DNA of 32,000 nucleotides from an archaeon. Its GTDB lineage: Archaea > Iainarchaeota > Iainarchaeia > Iainarchaeales > CSSED10-239. Numbering within the stretch: the stretch's first letter is position 1; each line of letters starts with the position of its first letter. Of this stretch, positions 1,644 through 19,778 are shown piece after piece. The DNA lies in assembly GCA_035400625.1 (NCBI GenBank), contig DAOMZT010000001.1:60001-92000 (forward strand). Direction: 5' to 3'. The notes beneath the pieces are model-generated. The model had not been told where the DNA came from and searched no databases. It was given only the letters and a program-made list of their open reading frames with translations. Both the position numbers and the translations under genes were made by a program.

Positions 1644-3029
1644 ATGACAAAAAACAAATATGAATATTATAATCCTGATTTTCAAAAAATTATAGAAAAT
1701 ATTAAAAAAAACAATTTAACAATAAAAGATCTCTCTGAATATTTTCTTAAAAATAACACATCTGATAAATCACAAGTAATCAAAGAACTTTTAAGACTAA
1801 ACAATATTGAAGATATAATATACGGTTCCGAAATAATAGATGAAAAAAAACAACTTCTTTCTAAATTTCTAGAAAAAGAATTATCAGATTACATAGTAAA
1901 TTACTTTATGGGCTATAGACAGCTAACCAAAATATTTGAACAAAGAAATATTGAAGAGATAATAATTAATGATTTTGATAAAGTGTTTATTATTGATAGA
2001 GAACAAAAAAAGACACTAACAGGGATAAAATTTAAAGAAAAAGAATATGAAAAACTTATTGAAGTCTTTAAAAACACAGTAAAAAGAGACTTTAAAAAAA
2101 GAGAATTTATAGATGGAACTTTACCAGATAGATCAAGATTAAATATTGTCTCAAAAGCAGTTTGTGATTTTAATGCAATAACTATAAGAAAATTCACAAA
2201 AAAACCATTAACTATAATTGATTTAATCAATAATGATGTTATAGACTCTTATACCGCAGCATATCTTTGGACAGTTATTGAAGGATTTAAAGTAAAACCT
2301 GCAAATCTTTTCGTATGTGGCGGTACTGGCTCAGGAAAAACAACTTTTCTAAATGTTTTAATGGATTTTATAGATAATAATGAAAGAGTAATATTAATTG
2401 AAGACACTGCAGAGTTAGATATTAGCAATTTTAATGATTCTGTTTCTCTTATCTCTGATATCTCTAATGAAGAGAGCTTATATGAAATAACCATAAATAC
2501 ATTAAGAATGAGACCTGATAGAGTAATTATTGGAGAAGTAAGAGCAAGAGAAGTTCAAGGGTTATTTGTTGCAATGGATACTGGCCACGAAGGTTGTATG
2601 GCGACATTACATGCAAACAATAGCGAAGATGCAGTCATTAAATTGCTAAACAAACCAATGGACATACCAGAAACGGTTCTCCCACTTCTTGATATAATAA
2701 TAATTTTAAAAAAGAAATTTTTTTCTGGAAAAACTATAAGAAAACTTTCTCAGATTACTGAAATTTCAAAAGTAGGAAATATCAATCTTAATAACATTTA
2801 CAAAGATGAGGAATGCAATGGTTGTTCAGTAGATGTTATGACCTCTCACTTTGCAGAAAAACTTTGTAATCTTGTAGGCATTTCTAAAAAAGAATTTAAG
2901 AGAATAATAGAATATAGGGCTGCATTGTTTGATCAAATCTGTGTGACTAAACCAGACATTTCTAGAGAAGACCTAAAAATAATATTACACAGCCAAGAAT
3001 TGGAGTATTTAGAAATATTGAAAAAATAA
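1644..3029 (+). CDS. FlaI/PilB/VirB11-type secretion (type IV pilus/archaellum-like) ATPase
   Basis: Walker A CGGTGSGKTT, Asp box ILIEDTAEL, Walker B PDRVIIGEVR, His box GHEGCMATLHAN. Confidence 0.85.
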   Translation: MTKNKYEYYNPDFQKIIENIKKNNLTIKDLSEYFLKNNTSDKSQVIKELLRLNNIEDIIYGSEIIDEKKQLLSKFLEKELSDYIVNYFMGYRQLTKIFEQRNIEEIIINDFDKVFIIDREQKKTLTGIKFKEKEYEKLIEVFKNTVKRDFKKREFIDGTLPDRSRLNIVSKAVCDFNAITIRKFTKKPLTIIDLINNDVIDSYTAAYLWTVIEGFKVKPANLFVCGGTGSGKTTFLNVLMDFIDNNERVILIEDTAELDISNFNDSVSLISDISNEESLYEITINTLRMRPDRVIIGEVRAREVQGLFVAMDTGHEGCMATLHANNSEDAVIKLLNKPMDIPETVLPLLDIIIILKKKFFSGKTIRKLSQITEISKVGNINLNNIYKDEECNGCSVDVMTSHFAEKLCNLVGISKKEFKRIIEYRAALFDQICVTKPDISREDLKIILHSQELEYLEILKK

Positions 3030-5673: not shown

Positions 5674-7134
5674 ATGGAGCATAAATTGTGTTTACTTAAT
5701 AGTAGTTATGAAAAAGACAGGGCAAGAGTGGTTCTCTACTTTGGTAGAGACCCTCTTAATAATAACTATGAATTAATACACAAAGCAACATATTATCCAT
5801 ATTTTATTGTAGAGTTAGAAAAAGAGCTAGTATCACAATTGCTTTCTGATTTTAAAAAAGATATTTCTCTTAAATCCCTAGACAAAAAGACCAAAATTAT
5901 TGCAAGAGACTTTGAACTACTTTCTAAGTGTTCTAAAATACTTCAACAGGCAACAGGAAAAAATATTATTCTAATAGAACCTGAAAGACAGTTTTTAATA
6001 AGAAATAATTGGAGTTACTATGATTCCTTTTGCGTTTTTAAAAGGAACATCAGAAAAATAAATAATGAAAACCACATACATTTTGCAATAAAAAACTATA
6101 CAAAAAATTTAAATTATTCTGAGAAAATAAGATTAATAGAGCCACTAACAAAGAAATTAATATTAAGTAATATCTTAAGGCTAAAACCAGAGACAAATAT
6201 TAAAAATGATCAAATACTAAATATACTTTTTGAAAATGAGTTTTTCAATAAAGAATTAATATTAACAAACACGAATAATTTCTATTACCAGACCAAAGAA
6301 AAATTTATTAAAGACCATATTAATCTAGATTTCTCTAATATTTTACCACACCTTTTAACTAAAAATTTCAATAATGTTGGTTTTGAAACCATAAATTGTG
6401 CTTGCTGCAAACCCCTTTCAACTTTACAAGAGAATGTTATGCCATCATCTCTTGTAGAAGTTGAATTTAAAAAATCTGGTTTTTATTTTATTTCTTGTGA
6501 TGATTATTGGGCAAGAGAATATCATAATAATCACGAACTAAAAGAGAACAGAGAAAACTACAAAAAGCAAAATGGCTTATTTAAGATGGTTGTTGGCCCT
6601 TTCTCTAAAGGGCAAAAAGAGAAAATATTGCTTGCTGATGCTTTAAGGCTTTTAAAAGACAAGGATCTAACAATATTAGAAAATCAAACAAACCTTGTCT
6701 GGAGCTGTAAAAAACAAGAATCTTTTGTTTCAAAGATAATTAACACTCTTTTTGAAAGACAAAATGTAATTGAACAATCAATTAACATTAGCACTCTTGG
6801 TAGCTATTCTGTTGGCAATTTTGAAAATTCTAAAGCTCTTGAAACAAACCCTCTTTTCTTACAATATTTAACAGAATATTCGCTTATTAATTCTTTAATT
6901 GAAGAAATCCCAAAATTTATGCAAAATAAAAATACTAAGTTTTATTCTTCTACAATAGACAATATCCTAAGAAACATAAAATATAATACTCTTGAAAGAG
7001 TTACAGAAAATGATGAGACATTAATCATTTCCAAAACAGGTAATTTTCAAATAAAAAATAAAACCTTGCTTTCAAAAATAAATAGTTCCTTTCAGGAAAT
7101 GGGGCTACCAATCCCTAGGTTAATCGTTAATTAA
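5674..7134 (+). CDS. family B DNA polymerase-like protein, apparently inactivated and lacking the exonuclease domain
   Basis: The N-terminus resembles the PolB N-terminal domain. Collinear degenerate motifs follow: A INLDFSNILPHLL (6319-6357), B KILLADALRL (6622-6651), C SINISTL (6778-6798) and KxY NTKFYSSTIDN (6931-6963). No Exo I-III motifs are present. The CDS itself is solid; the family call rests on alignment by eye. Confidence 0.55.
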   Translation: MEHKLCLLNSSYEKDRARVVLYFGRDPLNNNYELIHKATYYPYFIVELEKELVSQLLSDFKKDISLKSLDKKTKIIARDFELLSKCSKILQQATGKNIILIEPERQFLIRNNWSYYDSFCVFKRNIRKINNENHIHFAIKNYTKNLNYSEKIRLIEPLTKKLILSNILRLKPETNIKNDQILNILFENEFFNKELILTNTNNFYYQTKEKFIKDHINLDFSNILPHLLTKNFNNVGFETINCACCKPLSTLQENVMPSSLVEVEFKKSGFYFISCDDYWAREYHNNHELKENRENYKKQNGLFKMVVGPFSKGQKEKILLADALRLLKDKDLTILENQTNLVWSCKKQESFVSKIINTLFERQNVIEQSINISTLGSYSVGNFENSKALETNPLFLQYLTEYSLINSLIEEIPKFMQNKNTKFYSSTIDNILRNIKYNTLERVTENDETLIISKTGNFQIKNKTLLSKINSSFQEMGLPIPRLIVN

Positions 7135-10013: not shown

Positions 10014-10180
10014 GGTCTTTATTTCTCTATTTCTTTAGTATTTTTAAATTCATCTATTATATATATTTATGGTTGTGATTTTTGATACTATCCATAAATT
10101 AGTAATAGCTAGTTTTGCTATTGCTTATTTTGTAGATATTAGAAAAATAATAAAACCAATTATTAAAAATATGATAAAAT

Positions 10181-12685
10181 ATGGCAATTGATTTTGAATC
10201 TGAAGAAATTATTGTTGGAAGAAACCAAAGCCAAATAAAGAAATATGGAAAGAAGGCTACTGGCTATATAGGCAAGGTTGTAGTGTCCAGCGGAGATGAG
10301 CCTGTTCTTGGCAAAAAAGTATTAATGGATGTCTCTCGTTCACATGTTGCGATAGTTTGTGGAAAAAGAGGTGGTGGCAAATGCCTGACAGGAGATACAC
10401 TCATAACCTTAGAAGACGGAAGAGAGATACCTATTCAAGACTTAGGAAAGGAGAATAAAAAAATAATTTCCTTACAAAAAAACCTGAAATTAAAATGTTG
10501 TAAAAAAGAACAATTCTACAAACGCACGGTAAACAAAGTATTAGAAATAACATTAAGAAGCGGGAAAAAAATAAAACTAACCCCAAATCATCCATTATTA
10601 ACAGTATGTGGTTGGAAAGAAACTAAAGATTTAAAAAAAGGAAGCAGAATTGCTACACCTAGAGAGGTGCCTAGATTTGGCAACAAAAAGCTTCGTGATT
10701 GTGAAGTTAAATTATTAGCATATTTAATCGCAGAGGGCCATTTAGGGAATGGATTTGTGTTGTTTTGCAATAATGATGAAAAAATCATTTCAGAATTCAA
10801 AAATGTAATTTATTCTTTTGATAAAGGACTAAAGATATCGCCTCATGGTCGCAATAACTTAAGAATATCTAAAATTGAAAATGGCAAAGAAAAAAACAGT
10901 TTAAGGAAATATTTTGATTCTCTTGGATTATATAATGTAAAATCAGATACTAAATTCATTCCAGAAACTATATTTCAATTACCTAAAGAACAACTTTCTA
11001 TATTTTTAAATAGATTATTTAGTTGTGATGGCACCATCCATTTTGATAAAAATAAAAAAGAATATAATATTTCTTATTCATCTTCATCTCCTAAACTAAT
11101 ACAACAAGTCCAAAGTTTGCTTTTAAGATTTGGATTGCTTTCAATAATTAGAACAAAAAAAACTAAAAAATTACCAAACTATGAACTAAAAATCTTGTCT
11201 TCTCAAAATTTAGAATTTATTAAAAAAATCGGGTTTTTTGGGAAAAAAGAAGAAATACAAAAAAAAGTAAAAACAAAAAATAGCAATCCTAATGTAGATA
11301 CAATACCTAAAGAAATTTGGGAAATTTACAGACCAAAAAACTGGGCGACAGTTGGTAAAGGATTTGGTTATAAATCATTAAGATCATCAATCAACTATTC
11401 TCCATCTAGAGAAAAACTACTTAAAATTGCAAATTGCGAAAATAATAAAGAATTGAAAAACCTTGCAACTAGCGATATCTTCTGGGACGAGATTATTGAT
11501 ATAAAAGAAATTAACAAAAAACAAACAGTTTATGATATAACAGTTCCAGAAACTCATAATTTTGTTGCAAACAACATTATTGTCCATAATAGCTATACTA
11601 TGTCTGTTCTGATAGAAGAATTTGCAAAACAGCCATTTGAAATTAAAGAAAGATTGTCTGTTATTGTCATAGACACTGTTGGAATATTCTGGACCATGAA
11701 ATATCCAAACAAAGAAGATGCAAAGCTTCTTGAAAAATGGAATCTCAAACCAGAAGGAATAGATATCAGAAATCTTGTGCCTTTTGGTAAGAAAGACTTC
11801 TATGAACAAAAAAATCTTCCACATGATGGTTGTTTCTCAATAAGGACTTCACAAATGGATATTGAAGATTGGCTTGGAGTATTTAGACTTAATTGGAGAG
11901 ATGCAGAGTCTTCTTTGCTTTCAAGAACTATAGAGAAAATAAAAAACAAGGTTGGAAATCTTTATGATATTGACGACATCATGAACGAAGCAAAAAAAGA
12001 CACAGAAACATCATCAGAAATAATCAACTCTTTAAATAATAGATTTCTTGTTGCTAAATCCTGGGGGCTATTCTCTAGATCAGGGACAACAATGAAGGAG
12101 TTTGCAAAGCCAGGAACAATAACTATTATTGATACCAGTACTTACAAAGAAGCAATTGGCATGGAATCAATTAGAGAACTTATTGTTGGAATACTTGGTA
12201 AAAGACTATATGAAGAAAGAATGCTTTATAGAAAAGAAGAAGAAATGGGGTTGTTATCTGGCGGAAGAAAAGAAAGCGAGATGCCAATTATCTGGATGAT
12301 GATTGATGAGGCACACATGTTTATGCCTAGCGACAGGCATTCAATGGCACTTGATGTTTTGTTACAATGGATCAGGGTTGGAAGACAGCCAGGGTTATCT
12401 TTGCTTCTTGCAACACAAAGGCCAAACAAATTACATAACGAGGCAATCTCGCAATGTGATTTTTTCTTGAGTATGAGAATGACTTCTCAAGAGGACATTA
12501 TGGCTGTCTCATCAATTAGGCCAAGCTATCTTAATATTCCTATGGACAAATATTATGGACAGATGCCAAAAGACCAAGGTTATGCAATACTTCTAGATGA
12601 TAACTCAGAAAAAGTAATGTTAATAAAAATTAGACCAAGAATAACATGGGATGGTGGAAAGACAGCAAATGTTTTTGTTGATTAA
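10181..12685 (+). CDS. HerA/FtsK-superfamily (DUF87-like) P-loop ATPase, host of an intein
   Basis: After conceptual splicing the Walker A reads GKRGGGK|SYTMSV. Walker B is IIWMMIDEAHMF (DEAH at 12305-12316), and LLLATQRPNKL is typical of HerA/VirB4-like ATPases. The extein is 431 aa. Confidence 0.8.
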   Translation: MAIDFESEEIIVGRNQSQIKKYGKKATGYIGKVVVSSGDEPVLGKKVLMDVSRSHVAIVCGKRGGGKCLTGDTLITLEDGREIPIQDLGKENKKIISLQKNLKLKCCKKEQFYKRTVNKVLEITLRSGKKIKLTPNHPLLTVCGWKETKDLKKGSRIATPREVPRFGNKKLRDCEVKLLAYLIAEGHLGNGFVLFCNNDEKIISEFKNVIYSFDKGLKISPHGRNNLRISKIENGKEKNSLRKYFDSLGLYNVKSDTKFIPETIFQLPKEQLSIFLNRLFSCDGTIHFDKNKKEYNISYSSSSPKLIQQVQSLLLRFGLLSIIRTKKTKKLPNYELKILSSQNLEFIKKIGFFGKKEEIQKKVKTKNSNPNVDTIPKEIWEIYRPKNWATVGKGFGYKSLRSSINYSPSREKLLKIANCENNKELKNLATSDIFWDEIIDIKEINKKQTVYDITVPETHNFVANNIIVHNSYTMSVLIEEFAKQPFEIKERLSVIVIDTVGIFWTMKYPNKEDAKLLEKWNLKPEGIDIRNLVPFGKKDFYEQKNLPHDGCFSIRTSQMDIEDWLGVFRLNWRDAESSLLSRTIEKIKNKVGNLYDIDDIMNEAKKDTETSSEIINSLNNRFLVAKSWGLFSRSGTTMKEFAKPGTITIIDTSTYKEAIGMESIRELIVGILGKRLYEERMLYRKEEEMGLLSGGRKESEMPIIWMMIDEAHMFMPSDRHSMALDVLLQWIRVGRQPGLSLLLATQRPNKLHNEAISQCDFFLSMRMTSQEDIMAVSSIRPSYLNIPMDKYYGQMPKDQGYAILLDDNSEKVMLIKIRPRITWDGGKTANVFVD
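10382..11590 (+). mobile_element. 403-aa intein with a LAGLIDADG homing endonuclease domain, inserted in the Walker A motif (GK|S)
   Basis: Block A is CLTGDTLITLEDG (Cys1). Block B is LTPNHPLL (TxxH). The LAGLIDADG motifs are LLAYLIAEGHLG and FLNRLFSCDGTI. Block F is VYDITVPETHNFVANN. Block G is IIVHN, followed by the +1 Ser. Confidence 0.85.
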
Positions 12686-12730: not shown

Positions 12731-13411
12731 TTATTCATCAACCAATTTTGCTCCAAAATCTTTAGCAATAGTGTCTGCTATTTTTATTTTCTTGCTTGGA
12801 GCTTCTAATTGAAGTATGTTGTCTTTCTCAAAATAAATAACTAGGCTTTCAGAAGCAAGTCTGAACTTCATGGTCTGTGCCTTTAATACTTCGTCAAATA
12901 TCAGATTAATGTTTGTGGCAGGAACAATAATGTCAATTCCGACTTTCCTTCCTTTTATGTGCTCTGCTATATTATTAAGATCAATGGTGCCTACAACATT
13001 AAACTTTAGAACAAATTCAGAAATTTCAAAAGACTCAACAAGCCTCTCTATAAATTCTTTTGATTTTTTAGAGTTTTCAAATATCATTAGTCTATAGCAT
13101 CTGAAGTTTTCTAGGAAAACATCTCCTGCAGCTATTTTTTTCTCATAATCGTTTATTTCTGCATTAATGTTCTCTATAAGGATTAGCATTTTTTTATATA
13201 AGGAAATCAGTTCTCTTTTTTTTATTTCTTCTTCAATTATAGAATTTAAAAGCGGTTCTTTCTCGCTAATGTCTTGTAACTCTTTAACATCTTGAGCAAG
13301 TGATGATATTACCTCTTGCACTGGCTTATAGAGCTCTAGAATCTTATTTGTCCTATACAAGTTTTTATTTAAAGAATCAAATAATCTAGTTAATTTTGGA
13401 TCTTCTGGCAT
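12731..13411 (-). CDS. hypothetical protein (N-terminal coiled coil, C-terminal alpha/beta-looking domain)
   Basis: 226-aa ORF with a GGAGAG SD-like sequence upstream. It converges on the intein-bearing ATPase gene across a 45-nt T-rich spacer. Confidence 0.55.
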   Translation of the reverse strand: MPEDPKLTRLFDSLNKNLYRTNKILELYKPVQEVISSLAQDVKELQDISEKEPLLNSIIEEEIKKRELISLYKKMLILIENINAEINDYEKKIAAGDVFLENFRCYRLMIFENSKKSKEFIERLVESFEISEFVLKFNVVGTIDLNNIAEHIKGRKVGIDIIVPATNINLIFDEVLKAQTMKFRLASESLVIYFEKDNILQLEAPSKKIKIADTIAKDFGAKLVDE

Positions 13412-14429: not shown

Positions 14430-15179
14430 TTATTTAACAAATCTTTTGCGAAACGAATAATACATGGTTGCATTTTTCTGTTTGGCAACTTTAGAAACTT
14501 CTGATAAGAAATCAACAATATTATCTGCACTCATTTTCTTTAATTCTGTTGGTTTAAAGCCTTTATGAAACACAGAATTAAAATCTTCAACATATGTTTG
14601 ATAGATAGATTCATAAGCGTGTTTGGCTTCAGCTTTTGAATAAATTGAAATTTTATTTATAATGTCAATTTCCTGAGAAAATAAATCTTTAAATTTAGTA
14701 TCCATTATCTCTTTAACTGTGCCTTTCCTTGAAGCTTTTAAGACAGTATTTAATTTTTTTGTCCAACTCTCCATTTGTCTTTTCTTAATTGCCGTTAATC
14801 TTCTTCTTTCTGCAACTGCTAAATCGTGTGTTCTTTGTGTTTCTAAATCAGATATCTTTCTTTTATATTTCAATTTTAAATCAGTTATCTTTTGCTCATA
14901 AATCTTTTTATCTAAATCAATTTTCATTTGTTCTTTTTTGTTTGCACCAACTGTTTTTTCCAATGATTTAATTTTCTTTTCATATACTTTTAACAATGAA
15001 TCTCTATTTTGTTCGGTAAAAGCTACTTTCTCATTAAATGCTCTTGTGCCTGGCTTTGTTAGTTTCCCGGTCTTTGGGTTTCTTTTATAGCCAAGTTCTG
15101 ATGGCGTGGCTCTTTTGCCGGTTATTGCCTTTCTTGCTTTTAAATATATCCTTGGTTTAGTTGCTCTTGGTTTTATCAT
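14430..15179 (-). CDS. hypothetical protein with a K/R/P-rich N-terminal tail and a coiled-coil centre
   Basis: 249 aa. The N-terminus is MIKPRATKPRIYLKARKAITGKRATPSELGYKRNPKTGKLTKPGTR. Confidence 0.6.
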   Translation of the reverse strand: MIKPRATKPRIYLKARKAITGKRATPSELGYKRNPKTGKLTKPGTRAFNEKVAFTEQNRDSLLKVYEKKIKSLEKTVGANKKEQMKIDLDKKIYEQKITDLKLKYKRKISDLETQRTHDLAVAERRRLTAIKKRQMESWTKKLNTVLKASRKGTVKEIMDTKFKDLFSQEIDIINKISIYSKAEAKHAYESIYQTYVEDFNSVFHKGFKPTELKKMSADNIVDFLSEVSKVAKQKNATMYYSFRKRFVK

Positions 15180-15220
15180 ATTTTATCAACTCACATCATT
15201 TAACAAATGGAAAGATTTTA

Positions 15221-15409
15221 TCATTTAAAAAACCTTTTAACTTTAGCTTTTTCTGCATTTTTAATTTGTTCCATAGAAAAATGCTCTATAAGTTCAGGTG
15301 TCTTATATCCCCCACACATTAAAAGCTCTGGGAGAGTGAAATGCTGTTTTGCAAGCTCTAAGCTTATTCCTGCTCCTTTTAGATTTCTTAGTTTTAAAAA
15401 ATCAACCAC
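15221..15409 (-). CDS. small hypothetical protein (GTG start)
   Basis: 62 aa, 5 nt downstream of the stop of ORF 15415-15924 on the same strand. The composition looks coding, unlike the overlapping plus-strand ORF. Confidence 0.4.
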   Translation of the reverse strand: MVDFLKLRNLKGAGISLELAKQHFTLPELLMCGGYKTPELIEHFSMEQIKNAEKAKVKRFFK

Positions 15410-15414
15410 TTCAA

Positions 15415-15924
15415 CTATCTTTTGCTTTTTTGAGTATATATTCTTTTATTGACACTAGCTGAAGATTCTCCTGATGAATATTTTCTTGAATCTAAAAGGC
15501 TGTTAAATAATCCAACTTCCTTATAATAATCATTTTTTAATAATTCATTTCTAGTTATCCTGTATTGCTTTGGCTTTCCTTGATATTCTTGTGTGAAAAC
15601 CATTGTGCCAATTTTCGGGTCTAATCTTATTTCGCTTATTGGGACATTATAAAAAACTCCTCTTGGCTTATGTACTGGCTCTCTATTATAAACAGGGCTT
15701 CTTGATTTCTTATAATAATCATCTAAAACTCCTGTTTGTGATCTTCTTACTCTTGCATTCTCTCTTCCAACTTTTCTTAATTTTTCTAATTGCTTTGGAG
15801 TCAATTCTTTTGCTGAAACTCTACGGGTCGTATGTTTAGTACCTGTTGGCGATTTTCTCAATTTTAAAACTGACCTTTTTGGTTTTGGTGGTGCTGGTGC
15901 CTTTCGCATTTTTAATAACCCCAT
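15415..15924 (-). CDS. hypothetical protein with a K/R/P-rich N-terminal tail
   Basis: 169 aa. The N-terminus is MGLLKMRKAPAPPKPKRSVLKLRKSPTGTKHTTRR. A GGGAGGAAAT SD-like sequence lies upstream. Confidence 0.6.
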   Translation of the reverse strand: MGLLKMRKAPAPPKPKRSVLKLRKSPTGTKHTTRRVSAKELTPKQLEKLRKVGRENARVRRSQTGVLDDYYKKSRSPVYNREPVHKPRGVFYNVPISEIRLDPKIGTMVFTQEYQGKPKQYRITRNELLKNDYYKEVGLFNSLLDSRKYSSGESSASVNKRIYTQKSKR

Positions 15925-17121: not shown

Positions 17122-18564
17122 CTAGATTGTGGTTTCTTCCTTTTTTATCTCTATGTTGCTACTTGTCAGAGTTGGTCGCAAAAGAAGCCTTAATGGATCC
17201 TTATCAGGGTATCTTATGACAACATCATTATTAGATATAACCTCTATTTTCACTGTTGCTGGTTCTTTATCTATGAAATCATCAATATGCCCTGCACCAA
17301 TACAGTAGTTTAATTTTGGGTTTTCCTTAAGTATTGTTAATAGCTCATTTCCAATAAACGAATTGTTAAAGACATCGCTTGCTTGAGGAATAATTACTAA
17401 CACGTCCTCTTTTACTTCTTCAGATAATTTTTTAAGTATTCCATAAATGTAATAAACGTGCAATGGGTTATTTCTATTAATCATGAAGACCTTGCTTGAT
17501 CCTATATTTTTATATGTGCTTTCAAAAACTATTGAAAGATCAGTCTCTCCAAAATAACCACAATACACATCATCAATAATATTCAATTTAGAGATTATCC
17601 TCCATTTTTCAAAGTCAGTTATTTCATCTGTAATTCCTATGGCTGCGATATTCGCTATTAATTCAGAAATGTCCTTTACATTATCGGTATATGCCTGATC
17701 AATAATTTTTTGAGAAACACCAGTAAATTTAAATAAATTGATAAAAGCCAATTTTGGTATTGTGTATAATGGTATCTTAATCTTAAAAAAATCAATTGTG
17801 TTTATTGGGAAGCCAAAAGGAGAGACCTTCATATCAAAGGCACTCAACAGTTCTTCTTTTTGCTGAGGATAAGATAATGTCTTAAACACCCCTGTGCTAT
17901 CAAAGACAATCACTTTCTTTGAAGACAGCAGGTAATTTTCAGCAATAACTTTCATTGCAAATATTCTATCTTCTTCTTCTGAACCTGTTACTACAATTGA
18001 CCTTAGATTCTCTAAGCTGGCATTAATTGTAATTCCATTCTTTCTACCAACCAACAACTTATCTACTGAACTAATTGCTGATGAAAATTCTATGTTGTTT
18101 GGAGAGTTGGTCAATACCTTAACAATAAACGGATCATAAAAGAAATAATTTTTCTGTTCTGGTGGCAACATCTTTAGTGACAATAGTTTTATGTTATAAG
18201 ATTTTATTATAGAAATAATGGAACTTGTGATTTTGTTTAATTTTAATATTTTCTTTTCTATGTGTTCATTAAGTTGAGAAGAATCTACTATTTCTGTATC
18301 TGTGTTTAATATGAAAAATTTGTGAGTGTTCTTGTCGCCAATGTCAAAATGCTTCTCAAAAACAATACACTGGTTTGGTAGTGTTTCTGCAAATAATTCT
18401 ATATCCCCATCAACACCAAACACCTTGTATAATTGAACAAGCACCGAAGACGGATCTTTTGATCTTAATAAAGAAACAAAATAGTCATCATTAAATAAAA
18501 TTGCCAAATCTTTTTGACCATATACACCTTCAAAAAGTGTACTCCAAGTTGTTATTTGTGCCAT
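17122..18564 (-). CDS. degenerate (predicted catalytically dead) paralogue of the HerA/DUF87-like ATPase at 10181-12685
   Basis: KVIVFDSTGVFKTLSYP aligns with SVIVIDTVGIFWTMKYP. Walker A is replaced by TGSEEEDRI (17962-17988), DEAH by PQAS (within 17377-17394), and ATQRP by GAGHI. There is an extra ~165-aa N-terminal region. Confidence 0.6.
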   Translation of the reverse strand: MAQITTWSTLFEGVYGQKDLAILFNDDYFVSLLRSKDPSSVLVQLYKVFGVDGDIELFAETLPNQCIVFEKHFDIGDKNTHKFFILNTDTEIVDSSQLNEHIEKKILKLNKITSSIISIIKSYNIKLLSLKMLPPEQKNYFFYDPFIVKVLTNSPNNIEFSSAISSVDKLLVGRKNGITINASLENLRSIVVTGSEEEDRIFAMKVIAENYLLSSKKVIVFDSTGVFKTLSYPQQKEELLSAFDMKVSPFGFPINTIDFFKIKIPLYTIPKLAFINLFKFTGVSQKIIDQAYTDNVKDISELIANIAAIGITDEITDFEKWRIISKLNIIDDVYCGYFGETDLSIVFESTYKNIGSSKVFMINRNNPLHVYYIYGILKKLSEEVKEDVLVIIPQASDVFNNSFIGNELLTILKENPKLNYCIGAGHIDDFIDKEPATVKIEVISNNDVVIRYPDKDPLRLLLRPTLTSSNIEIKKEETTI

Positions 18565-18659: not shown

Positions 18660-19193
18660 ATGGTTTTTATAATGGTAGATGCAACACTAATCAAAGATAC
18701 AATTACTGAATTATTGGAAGCAAATGTAGATAAGGAAACAATCTATCAGACTTTAAAAGACATTGGCGTAGACAGTGCAGATATTGATAAATACTATAGA
18801 GATGCAACAACTAAAGAAAAAGCAAAGCAAACAGAAACCAAAACACCAGAACCTGAAACAGAAACAGAAACACCAGATGTTTCTGAAAATTCAAAAACCG
18901 AAGAAGCAATACATCATAAGCCAAAAGTAACAACTGAAGATTTAGAAAAAGCAACTAAAGAAGTTATTGATTCAGAAGTTATGAAAAATCAAGAAGATAT
19001 AGAAGATAACATAATTATAGAAAAAGATAATGCTCAAATTTTAGAAATTAACAACACAATTTTAGAAATTAAAAAACAAGTGTCTGGTCTTGAAACCCAG
19101 ATAAGTGATATTAAAGCGCAGATTAGTGGCCTTACTAAAATTATGAAAGATATTCTTGAAGAAAATAGAAATATTTTAAACAAGTTAAAGTAA
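18660..19193 (+). CDS. hypothetical acidic protein (small N-domain, T/E/P-rich linker, C-terminal coiled coil)
   Basis: 177 aa. The linker is TETKTPEPETETETPDVSENS and the heptad-like C-terminus is ILEIKKQVSGLETQISDIKAQISGLTKIM. The gene is divergent from the dead ATPase gene. Confidence 0.55.
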   Translation: MVFIMVDATLIKDTITELLEANVDKETIYQTLKDIGVDSADIDKYYRDATTKEKAKQTETKTPEPETETETPDVSENSKTEEAIHHKPKVTTEDLEKATKEVIDSEVMKNQEDIEDNIIIEKDNAQILEINNTILEIKKQVSGLETQISDIKAQISGLTKIMKDILEENRNILNKLK

Positions 19194-19511: not shown

Positions 19512-19778
19512 TTATTTTTTTACTCCTGTCCAGCTTTTTATTGTGTTTTTCAAATCGCTTCCAAATATCCAGTATATCCCTACTCCGATAGCAACTAACC
19601 ATATCAAATCTGGGTATTTGTAGAATAAAAGAAAAACTAAAAAACCAGTAATTAATATTGCAATTAATTCATTACCAATTTGTTTTTTTGCCCAAACATA
19701 AATTGATATTGAAAAAACTATGAATAATATTATCCAAATAGAATCTTCTAAAGATGTTGCTAAAAAAATATTATTCAT
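19512..19778 (-). CDS. small integral membrane protein
   Basis: 88 aa with about three hydrophobic helices. A 1-nt gap separates it from the next ORF and 14 nt separate it from L15e, all on the same strand. Confidence 0.55.
   Translation of the reverse strand: MNNIFLATSLEDSIWIILFIVFSISIYVWAKKQIGNELIAILITGFLVFLLFYKYPDLIWLVAIGVGIYWIFGSDLKNTIKSWTGVKK

Follow-up and report, generated by a model that had tools for sequence, protein, structure and literature searches.

The window examined here is a 32,000-nucleotide stretch of archaeal DNA (GenBank assembly GCA_035400625.1, contig DAOMZT010000001.1, positions 60,001 to 92,000) from a member of the Iainarchaeota, with a G+C content of about 30%. 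On its reverse strand lies an open reading frame (ORF) of 480 amino acids (aa) whose product belongs to the HerA clade of P-loop ATPases but is non-catalytic; it is here called the pseudo-ATPase. A gene for an acidic coiled-coil protein diverges from it and is followed by genes for two small membrane proteins, while a homologous, active ATPase of the DUF87 family is encoded some 4.4 kb away (Table 1). The housekeeping genes of the window include those for Alba, L44e, L15e, TFB and RNase HII, with fibrillarin/Nop identified by synteny. An earlier note, made from the letters of this DNA, had read the 480-aa protein as the inactive half of an active/inactive pair with the nearby ATPase; its placement of the gene (strand, length and ATG start) was confirmed, and its motif coordinates (17962-17988 for TGSEEEDRI, residues 193-201; 17377-17394 for IIPQAS, residues 391-396) are exact.

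Fold and position within the HerA clade

The pseudo-ATPase gave no family at E<=1 in a Pfam scan that included PF01935 (DUF87) or in an NCBIfam scan that included the HerA models. Its affiliation is instead evident from structure prediction and from broad sequence profiles. An AlphaFold2 (AF2) model built with 35 homologues has a mean predicted local distance difference test score (pLDDT) of 81.8 and is confident everywhere except in the linker (residues 153-169). Foldseek comparison of the model with the PDB placed Sulfolobus HerA first (4d2i, E 1.9e-10), followed by TrwK/VirB4 (E 7.6e-8), bacterial anti-phage HerA, TdpA, TrwB, FtsK and DndH, and all of the 43 matches at E<=1e-3 fall within the HerA/FtsK superfamily. 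Two alignments of the family were used, a narrow one of close homologues (A1) and a broad one (A3). The A3 profile finds the HerA of 4d2i by sequence alone (E 5.8e-7, HerA residues 106-409) and also the HerA-like protein YjgR (E 8.4e-6), whereas A1 yielded only noise against PDB sequences (ZAP-70, E 0.55), so that HerA was reached by sequence because the broad profile was used. Model, Foldseek and profiles agree on a RecA-like ASCE core with HerA-type topology and a helical insertion, which bears out the HerA/FtsK-type fold assigned in the earlier note.

Homology between the pseudo-ATPase and the active ATPase of the window is likewise confirmed, and goes beyond chance. The active gene is an ORF of 834 aa in which an intein (residues 68-470; Pfam Intein_splicing, 4.9e-30, and LAGLIDADG_3, 1.4e-16) splits the P-loop GKRGGGKS before its serine; once spliced, the 431-aa extein matches Pfam DUF87/PF01935 at E 9.3e-13. 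BLASTP aligns the pseudo-ATPase with this extein at E 7e-6 over 113 aa spanning the Walker A region, and a Smith-Waterman score of 86 stands against 39.7 +/- 5.8 for 1000 shuffled sequences, none of which reached 86 (z = 8.0). Profile-profile comparison by hhalign gave a probability of 82% (E 1.1e-5) with the narrow alignment of the pseudo-ATPase family and 95.4% (E 1.9e-8, 263 columns) with the broad one; the global mode of hhalign is uninformative here, owing to an N-terminal domain without counterpart in the active protein. When the window was scanned with the hidden Markov model (HMM) of either family, the other gene was the sole secondary match. In the broad comparison TGSEEEDRI is paired with GKRGGGKS, IIPQAS with IDEAH and GAGHI with ATQRP, identical to the three pairings that had been made by eye.

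This homology is not especially close. The A3 profile scores 31.8 bits on Sulfolobus HerA and 3-21 bits on members of the DUF87 family, with 18.2 bits for the window's own extein (same profile, same database size), and a profile of the DUF87 family in turn scores 25.8 bits on HerA and 10 bits on the pseudo-ATPase. Because the pseudo-ATPase family scores higher on HerA than on the family of its neighbour, the two look like separate branches of the HerA clade rather than recent duplicates, as far as profile scores can tell.

The region preceding the core (residues 1-152), which the earlier note had already recognised as an addition absent from the active copy, is predicted to fold separately and with confidence. 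Modelled alone, it reaches a pLDDT of 82.6 and a predicted template modelling score (pTM) of 0.79, with seven beta-strands, a 29-residue helix and several short helices. Foldseek of this domain against the PDB returned nothing at E<=0.001; the best match, YbjN, has an E-value of 0.047, which is not evidence, and it was rejected as a relative. The HAS-barrel of HerA is not among the 50 matches listed, and in the model the domain sits at the HAS-barrel position yet is not recognisably a HAS-barrel. It is well conserved, holding 30 of the 60 invariant columns of A1. The most conserved region of the protein is the C-terminal hairpin and tail, KDPLRLLLRPTLTSS, with R459 and R463 invariant throughout the family; the N-terminal domain and the first half of the core come next. 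The linker is the lowest segment, and the minimum within the core falls in the former Walker B/sensor half.

Sulfolobus HerA (4D2I), a hexameric DNA translocase partnered by NurA, is both the best structural and the best PDB sequence match of the pseudo-ATPase. The two proteins are similar in size (~480-500 aa), share the order of an N-terminal domain followed by a RecA-like core with a helical insertion, and both have an aspartate at the position of HerA D176. However, the Walker A lysine, the Walker B acidic pair, the sensor glutamine and the arginine finger are all replaced, the N-terminal domain differs as described, the Pfam DUF87 and NCBIfam HerA models fail, and the gene lacks NurA, Mre11 and Rad50 neighbours. 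With catalytic features, HAS-barrel and genomic context all failing, the family should not be filed as HerA, but as a HerA-clade pseudo-ATPase with a new N-terminal domain.

Table 1. Features of the pseudo-ATPase locus, in positions of the window
Feature	Position	Strand	Basis
HerA-clade pseudo-ATPase gene, 480 aa	17122..18564	(-)	ATG-start ORF, homologues, intact orthologues, dN/dS
N-terminal domain, residues 1-152, fold unassigned	18109..18564	(-)	AF2 domain model, conservation
Linker, residues 153-169	18058..18108	(-)	pLDDT <50; lowest conservation of all regions
HerA-like RecA/ASCE core with helical insertion, residues 170-466	17167..18057	(-)	Foldseek, profile, hhalign
Pseudo-Walker A TGSEEEDRI, residues 193-201, R200 at the Walker Lys position	17962..17988	(-)	alignments to active copy and HerA
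Retained D222, equivalent of HerA D176 ('FD' after second core strand)	17899..17901	(-)	alignment
Pseudo-Walker B strand VLVIIPQAS, residues 388-396	17377..17403	(-)	alignment to HerA and active copy
Degenerate sensor/arginine-finger element NYCIGAGHID, residues 419-428, in place of ATQRP	17281..17310	(-)	alignment
C-terminal hairpin and tail KDPLRLLLRPTLTSS, residues 455-469	17158..17202	(-)	alignments A1 and A3
Acidic coiled-coil protein, divergent to the pseudo-ATPase gene	18660..19193	(+)	synteny; probable start 18672
Small multi-pass membrane protein, 104 aa	19196..19510	(-)	hydropathy profile; positional homologues in relatives, including distant L011
Small membrane protein, 88 aa, ~3 transmembrane segments (tm88)	19512..19778	(-)	hydropathy profile; homologues
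Active DUF87/HerA-clade ATPase, extein 431 aa, intein 10382-11590 in the P-loop	10181..12685	(+)	Pfam, extein reconstruction

Loss of the catalytic elements and retention of the gene

An HMMER alignment to HerA places R200 of the pseudo-ATPase at the Walker A lysine K154, P393 and Q394 at the Walker B pair E355/E356 (D306 and E307 in the active copy), and G425 and H426 at Q380/R381, the sensor glutamine and the arginine finger. HerA TGSGKS, with K154, aligns with TGSEEEDRI, which lacks the GxxxxGK[ST] pattern of Walker A. The same positions were surveyed in 132 full-length members of the family. The Walker lysine position is arginine in 106 and lysine in only four, with no serine or threonine after it, and the former glycine-rich loop is acidic family-wide (GGxE[EK][ED]R). 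The first acidic position of Walker B (393) is proline in 67, glutamate in 30 and aspartate in eight members, glutamate occupies the catalytic position in only 38, and neither arginine nor glutamine is conserved at the arginine-finger/sensor position; the window protein has neither an hhhhDE strand nor a TQRP element. Neither this protein nor any of 34 close homologues contains a canonical P-loop ([AG]xxxxGK[ST]), and a hidden site elsewhere in the protein, which would have undone the earlier note's reading, was rejected; in the wider family nine of the 132 members carry chance strings of this form, scattered and off the aligned Walker A site (193-201). The claim that every catalytic signature has been replaced therefore stands on both the HerA alignment and the family survey, and the loss is a property of the whole family rather than an accident of one lineage.

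Mutational work on HerA of S. islandicus gives these substitutions a biochemical reference. None of the mutants K154R, E356D, E356Q and R381K could sustain the essential role of HerA in vivo; loss of ATPase activity is reported for K154R and R381K, and may extend to E356Q; R381 has the role of a trans-acting arginine finger; and D176E is the only tolerated mutant (PMC4351679). By alignment, the window protein carries two of the tested changes, K154 to R and E356 to Q, together with a differently substituted, His-bearing position at the essential R381. The retained aspartate D222, which aligns with HerA D176 and with D95 of the active family, is invariant in A1 and predominant in A3. Judged from its motifs, the protein is predicted to be unable to bind or hydrolyse ATP in the canonical manner.

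The family is nonetheless retained. A word-index search found 38 homologues of 44-98% identity, the full-length ones 471-486 aa long and none with a Pfam domain, and an exhaustive profile search extended the family to at least 179 clusters at 50% identity, nearly all of 470-520 aa, whose matches span residues ~7 to 466, so that conservation is full-length down to ~18-20% identity. In GTDB species-representative genomes, 20 of 20 orthologues are uninterrupted ORFs of 474-481 aa. Ratios of nonsynonymous to synonymous substitution rates (dN/dS, Nei-Gojobori) for the three closest pairs are 0.057-0.076 at dS 0.74-1.06, to be compared with 0.04-0.07 for L15e, 0.04-0.05 for the active extein and 0.10-0.14 for thioredoxin reductase; in nonsynonymous change the pseudo-ATPase evolves about three times faster than the active copy (dN 0.25 vs 0.085, window vs L008, one of the numbered loci, L001 onwards, used for comparison). 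All named members of the family belong to Iainarchaeota/Diapherotrites, and the names on homologues of the genes studied are Candidatus ainarchaeum, Iainarchaeum, Diapherotrites and Forterrea, the last belonging to the phylum Candidatus Iainarchaeota (kingdom Nanobdellati/DPANN). A search of viral contigs found no relative of the pseudo-ATPase, leaving a mobile-element origin unsupported. Intact orthologues, dN/dS and distribution together show an old protein under strong purifying selection across sampled Iainarchaeota.

Two alternatives to a retained, catalytically silent protein bear directly on these data. One holds that the gene is a decaying pseudogene or a functionless over-called ORF, as might be read into the lack of any Pfam or NCBIfam match and the disappearance of all catalytic motifs. 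It is refuted by the uninterrupted orthologues (frameshifts or stops there would have told against the earlier note's retained pseudo-enzyme) and by a dN/dS of 0.06-0.08 at dS 0.7-1.0, in the range of a ribosomal protein; conservation over the full length and a confident AF2 model add to this, and the pseudogene reading is given practically no weight. The other supposes that the protein still binds or hydrolyses a nucleotide or a phosphorylated ligand through a deviant site of Arg, Asp and Glu. The conserved R200, the invariance of D222 in A1 and of E209 in both A1 and A3, and the glutamate kept at the catalytic position by about a third of the family all fit such a site, as does a loop of the same length as the P-loop, aligned by BLASTP to GKRGGGKS without an insertion or deletion. 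However, the acidic loop should repel phosphates, the Ser/Thr needed for Mg2+ is absent, and the arginine finger and sensor glutamine are gone too, while conservation of the core is lowest in the former Walker B/sensor half. K154R by itself abolishes the ATPase activity of HerA (PMC4351679), and residual chemistry at a deviant site is accordingly regarded as very unlikely.

The active ATPase as a candidate partner

The active family is large (more than 3500 matches), has invariant GKRGxGKS, DEAH and ATQRP motifs and is widespread in Iainarchaeota, with members in other DPANN too. In the window and in L005, L007 and L008 the genes follow one order, from the pseudo-ATPase gene through TFB, a variable insert, thioredoxin reductase and a 226-aa gene to the convergent DUF87 ATPase gene, and the same order recurs in six further GTDB species whose proteins are 54-72% identical to the window protein. 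Within 10 kb of the pseudo-ATPase gene the active gene is found only in this sub-clade, at >=54% identity to the window protein. Among orthologues of <=51% identity with complete 10-kb flanks (L001, L003/L024, L027, L031 and L032) the flanks lack the ATPase gene, as do the surroundings of all eight more distant loci checked, and in L006 (Iainarchaeum, CP064981) it lies in an unrelated context.

The earlier note had proposed that the pseudo-ATPase is a regulatory or scaffold subunit in a mixed ring with the active ATPase. Such a ring would resemble those of F1/V1 ATPases, where non-catalytic alpha/B subunits alternate with catalytic ones. The likeness is a general one: F1 alpha and V1/A1 B are RecA-like ring-ATPase paralogues retained without catalysis. 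Consistent with a mixed ring, the two proteins are homologous, with no further relative of either in the window, their genes lie ~4-9 kb apart in the window, in L005, L007 and L008 and in the six further species, the abundance of the active family in the same phylum makes co-occurrence plausible (the two co-occur in genomes of at least one sub-clade), and both proteins have a similar C-terminal hairpin with an 'RP' motif. They also share a motif, hhhhD-x-x-G-x-F-x-x-L-x-x-P-N, after the Walker A helix. Against it, linkage is confined to the sub-clade and absent in L024, L027, L031, L032 and the eight distant loci; the genes are on opposite strands, with TFB, the variable insert, thioredoxin reductase and the 226-aa gene, all unrelated, between them; the pseudo-ATPase family scores higher on canonical HerA than on its neighbour's family, which is no closer to it than HerA is; and the active protein differs in its intact motifs, the lack of a large N-terminal domain, slower evolution (about threefold) and a gene context with a membrane-protein partner of its own. 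The arginine finger weighs further. The non-catalytic alpha subunit of F1 keeps its nucleotide site and supplies the arginine finger to its catalytic neighbour. An F1-like partner would be expected to keep this residue, whereas the pseudo-ATPase has lost both the nucleotide site and the finger, lacks consistent linkage to an active partner gene and, with a trans-acting finger lost, could not complete the active site of a neighbouring subunit. Nothing beyond homology and proximity in one sub-clade backs the mixed ring, which is considered unlikely; of the proposed pair, the homology and the inactivity of one member hold, and the specific pairing is not supported. Synteny of the two genes is not conserved across the pseudo-ATPase family, and we infer that the protein does not depend on the DUF87 ATPase, their proximity reflecting the local gene order of one sub-clade.

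Several observations concern the active gene and the interval itself. The 403-aa intein, with its LAGLIDADG homing-endonuclease domain, is inserted between K67 and the following serine (GKRGGGK/CLTGDT...VHN/SYT, slashes marking the junctions); L007 and L008 have an intein-bearing orthologue of 837 aa, whereas that of L005 (431 aa, otherwise 94% identical) is intein-free. In L005, L007, L008 and L017-L021 a gene for a multi-pass membrane protein of 218-224 aa lies directly upstream of the ATPase gene and co-directional with it, overlapping it by 4 nt in L008. The corresponding region of the window (10014-10180) contains a remnant (10081-10137) of the first ~19 codons of this gene (74% identity), so that the usual membrane operon partner has apparently been deleted, leaving the ATPase without it. 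The 226-aa ORFan convergent with the ATPase gene (12731-13411; 51% identity to its L001 counterpart) was listed in the earlier note as a neighbour of the active copy, and was rejected as its partner: it stays with thioredoxin reductase and ScpA where the ATPase is elsewhere, ScpA being next to it in L001 and L003. Of the neighbours listed there, those that do recur with the pseudo-ATPase gene are the coiled-coil protein and both small membrane proteins. The interval between TFB and thioredoxin reductase (14430-15924) encodes two Lys/Arg-rich ORFans of 169 and 249 aa, the latter a coiled-coil protein; relatives carry other genes at this site, either four ORFs of 241-276 aa (L005) or a toxin-antitoxin-like DUF3368/UPF0175 pair (L007), and it looks like a variable insertion spot.

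Conserved neighbours and proposed role

The most constant companion of the pseudo-ATPase gene is the coiled-coil gene, whose homologue is adjacent and divergent in 20 of 20 GTDB loci, in L001, L003 and L008, and in five of six distant loci (L009-L012 and L033). In L005 and L007 a gene matching it in size, position and strand is present, and was aligned for dN/dS. The first ATG of the gene in the window (18660) gives MVFIMVD..., and since all orthologues begin MVD, MVE or MVS, the real start is probably the second methionine (18672). The protein consists of a helical N-terminal domain of ~45 aa, an acidic, variable linker and a conserved C-terminal coiled coil ...IKAQISGLTKIMKDILEENRNILNKLK. 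The 88-aa membrane protein (tm88) has a homologue at distant L010 and L011 as well as at 19 of the 20 GTDB loci, the 104-aa protein recurs in relatives including L011, and the distant loci have three to five small hydrophobic proteins each. Hydropathy profiles mark the small proteins as strongly hydrophobic, and neither the pseudo-ATPase nor the coiled-coil protein has a transmembrane segment.

Pfam and NCBIfam searches with these neighbours (the coiled-coil protein, the small membrane proteins, the 224-aa membrane partner of the active ATPase and a second coiled-coil family described below) gave no match, and sub-threshold hits to IcmG/DotF, TcpD and NPV_P10 were rejected as chance coiled-coil noise. 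NurA, Mre11 and Rad50, whose absence the earlier note had pointed out, were found neither in the window nor among the loci whose called genes or homologues were inspected.

Further genes were noted around the family. Five distant loci (L009-L012 and L033) carry a second conserved coiled-coil gene of 133-155 aa, convergent and with the motif ELKYVIxxxNPLEFVT (for example L011, 3677-4129). In L010, L011 and L033 it is directly followed by a family-B DNA polymerase gene (PolB; L011, 4202-6595), in L012 a 257-aa gene lies between it and the pseudo-ATPase gene, and in L009 the downstream gene (553 aa) is unannotated. The second coiled-coil gene and this PolB neighbour are absent from the clade of the window. 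At 1644-3029 the window has a gene for a secretion ATPase of the PilB/ArlI type (Pfam T2SSE, 8.5e-31), and in distant L010 and L033 a T2SSE gene and two T2SSF genes lie 5-8 kb from the pseudo-ATPase gene. The window also encodes a 486-aa ORFan (5674-7134) without a Pfam match and unrelated to either ATPase family (HMM E > 1).

Taken together, the pseudo-ATPase is probably, in our estimation with modest confidence, a non-catalytic HerA-fold scaffold of a phylum-specific, membrane-associated complex that is independent of the DUF87 ATPase. With canonical ATP binding and hydrolysis lost, the protein would act without ATP turnover as a structural subunit, probably oligomerising through its preserved core and invariant C-terminal hairpin, and would serve as the soluble hub of a small complex at the membrane whose other parts may be the divergent coiled-coil protein and at least two of the small multi-pass membrane proteins whose genes lie just upstream. 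The N-terminal domain and the C-terminal tail, as the most conserved parts, would carry the specific contacts; their likeliest counterpart is the coiled-coil protein, and the small membrane proteins could be contacted through it or directly. The housekeeping neighbourhood (L15e, TFB, PolB) and the spread across sampled Iainarchaeota point to a core cellular function rather than to defence or mobility.

Several points weigh against this reading. The complex is inferred from gene order, which is generally conserved in these small genomes (L15e, TFB and PolB are neighbours too), so that adjacency is weaker evidence than it would be in larger genomes. The coiled-coil neighbour is missing from L034, one of the distant loci, and the distant bulk of the family was sampled for this neighbour at six loci. 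Since no neighbour matches a Pfam or NCBIfam family, no concrete process is indicated. The slight chance of a ligand bound at the deviant site, discussed above, also counts against a purely structural role. The evidence for the assignment of partners is moderate.

A more far-reaching proposal, to which we give a low probability, is that the cluster encodes an undescribed, Iainarchaeota-specific membrane machine descended from a HerA/VirB4-type translocation apparatus, its motor now a passive ring. Such a ring might act as a collar that binds DNA or protein and holds the chromosome, or a substrate, at the membrane during segregation, division or exchange between cells; any energy required would have another source, and the N-terminal domain, as a new fold, would set specificity. 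The membrane ATPases VirB4 and CedB (conjugation and DNA import), which stand beside VirB2/VirB3 and CedA1/CedA2, provide the model: the superfamily fold is the same, TrwK/VirB4 is the second-best Foldseek group, and the pseudo-ATPase gene adjoins two to five genes for small multi-pass membrane proteins. However, these small proteins resemble no NCBIfam or Pfam model, no Ced model is among the NCBIfam matches of the pseudo-ATPase, genes for a VirB6-like polytopic protein, VirD4 and a relaxase are absent from the cluster, and in contrast to VirB4 and CedB the ATPase is dead. The genes around the cluster are core housekeeping genes, and the search of viral contigs detected no relative.

That ring ATPases can give rise to pseudo-enzymes is already known. 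A literature search on inactive or pseudo HerA in archaea or DPANN found nothing specific, and Pfam, NCBIfam and the searchable literature contain nothing on this family, its phylum-specific spread or its conserved cluster. The reading of the locus as an active/inactive pair has been weakened and no concrete function for the pseudo-ATPase has emerged. The result also corrects the tempting inference that homologous genes a few kilobases apart must function as a pair. In Iainarchaeota and other DPANN archaea, whose tiny genomes devote a large share of their conserved genes to proteins without assigned function, a family of ~480 aa now has a fold and an evolutionary origin, in the HerA clade. It also carries a biochemical prediction, namely that its members should have no ATPase activity, with substitutions that match or resemble tested loss-of-function mutations of HerA. 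Gene order yields a defined set of candidate partners, and structural or pull-down studies of uncultivated archaea gain a concrete target in the conserved cluster that the pseudo-ATPase gene forms with those for the coiled-coil and small membrane proteins. The family would offer a clean natural example of a ring-ATPase fold retained for a non-enzymatic role.

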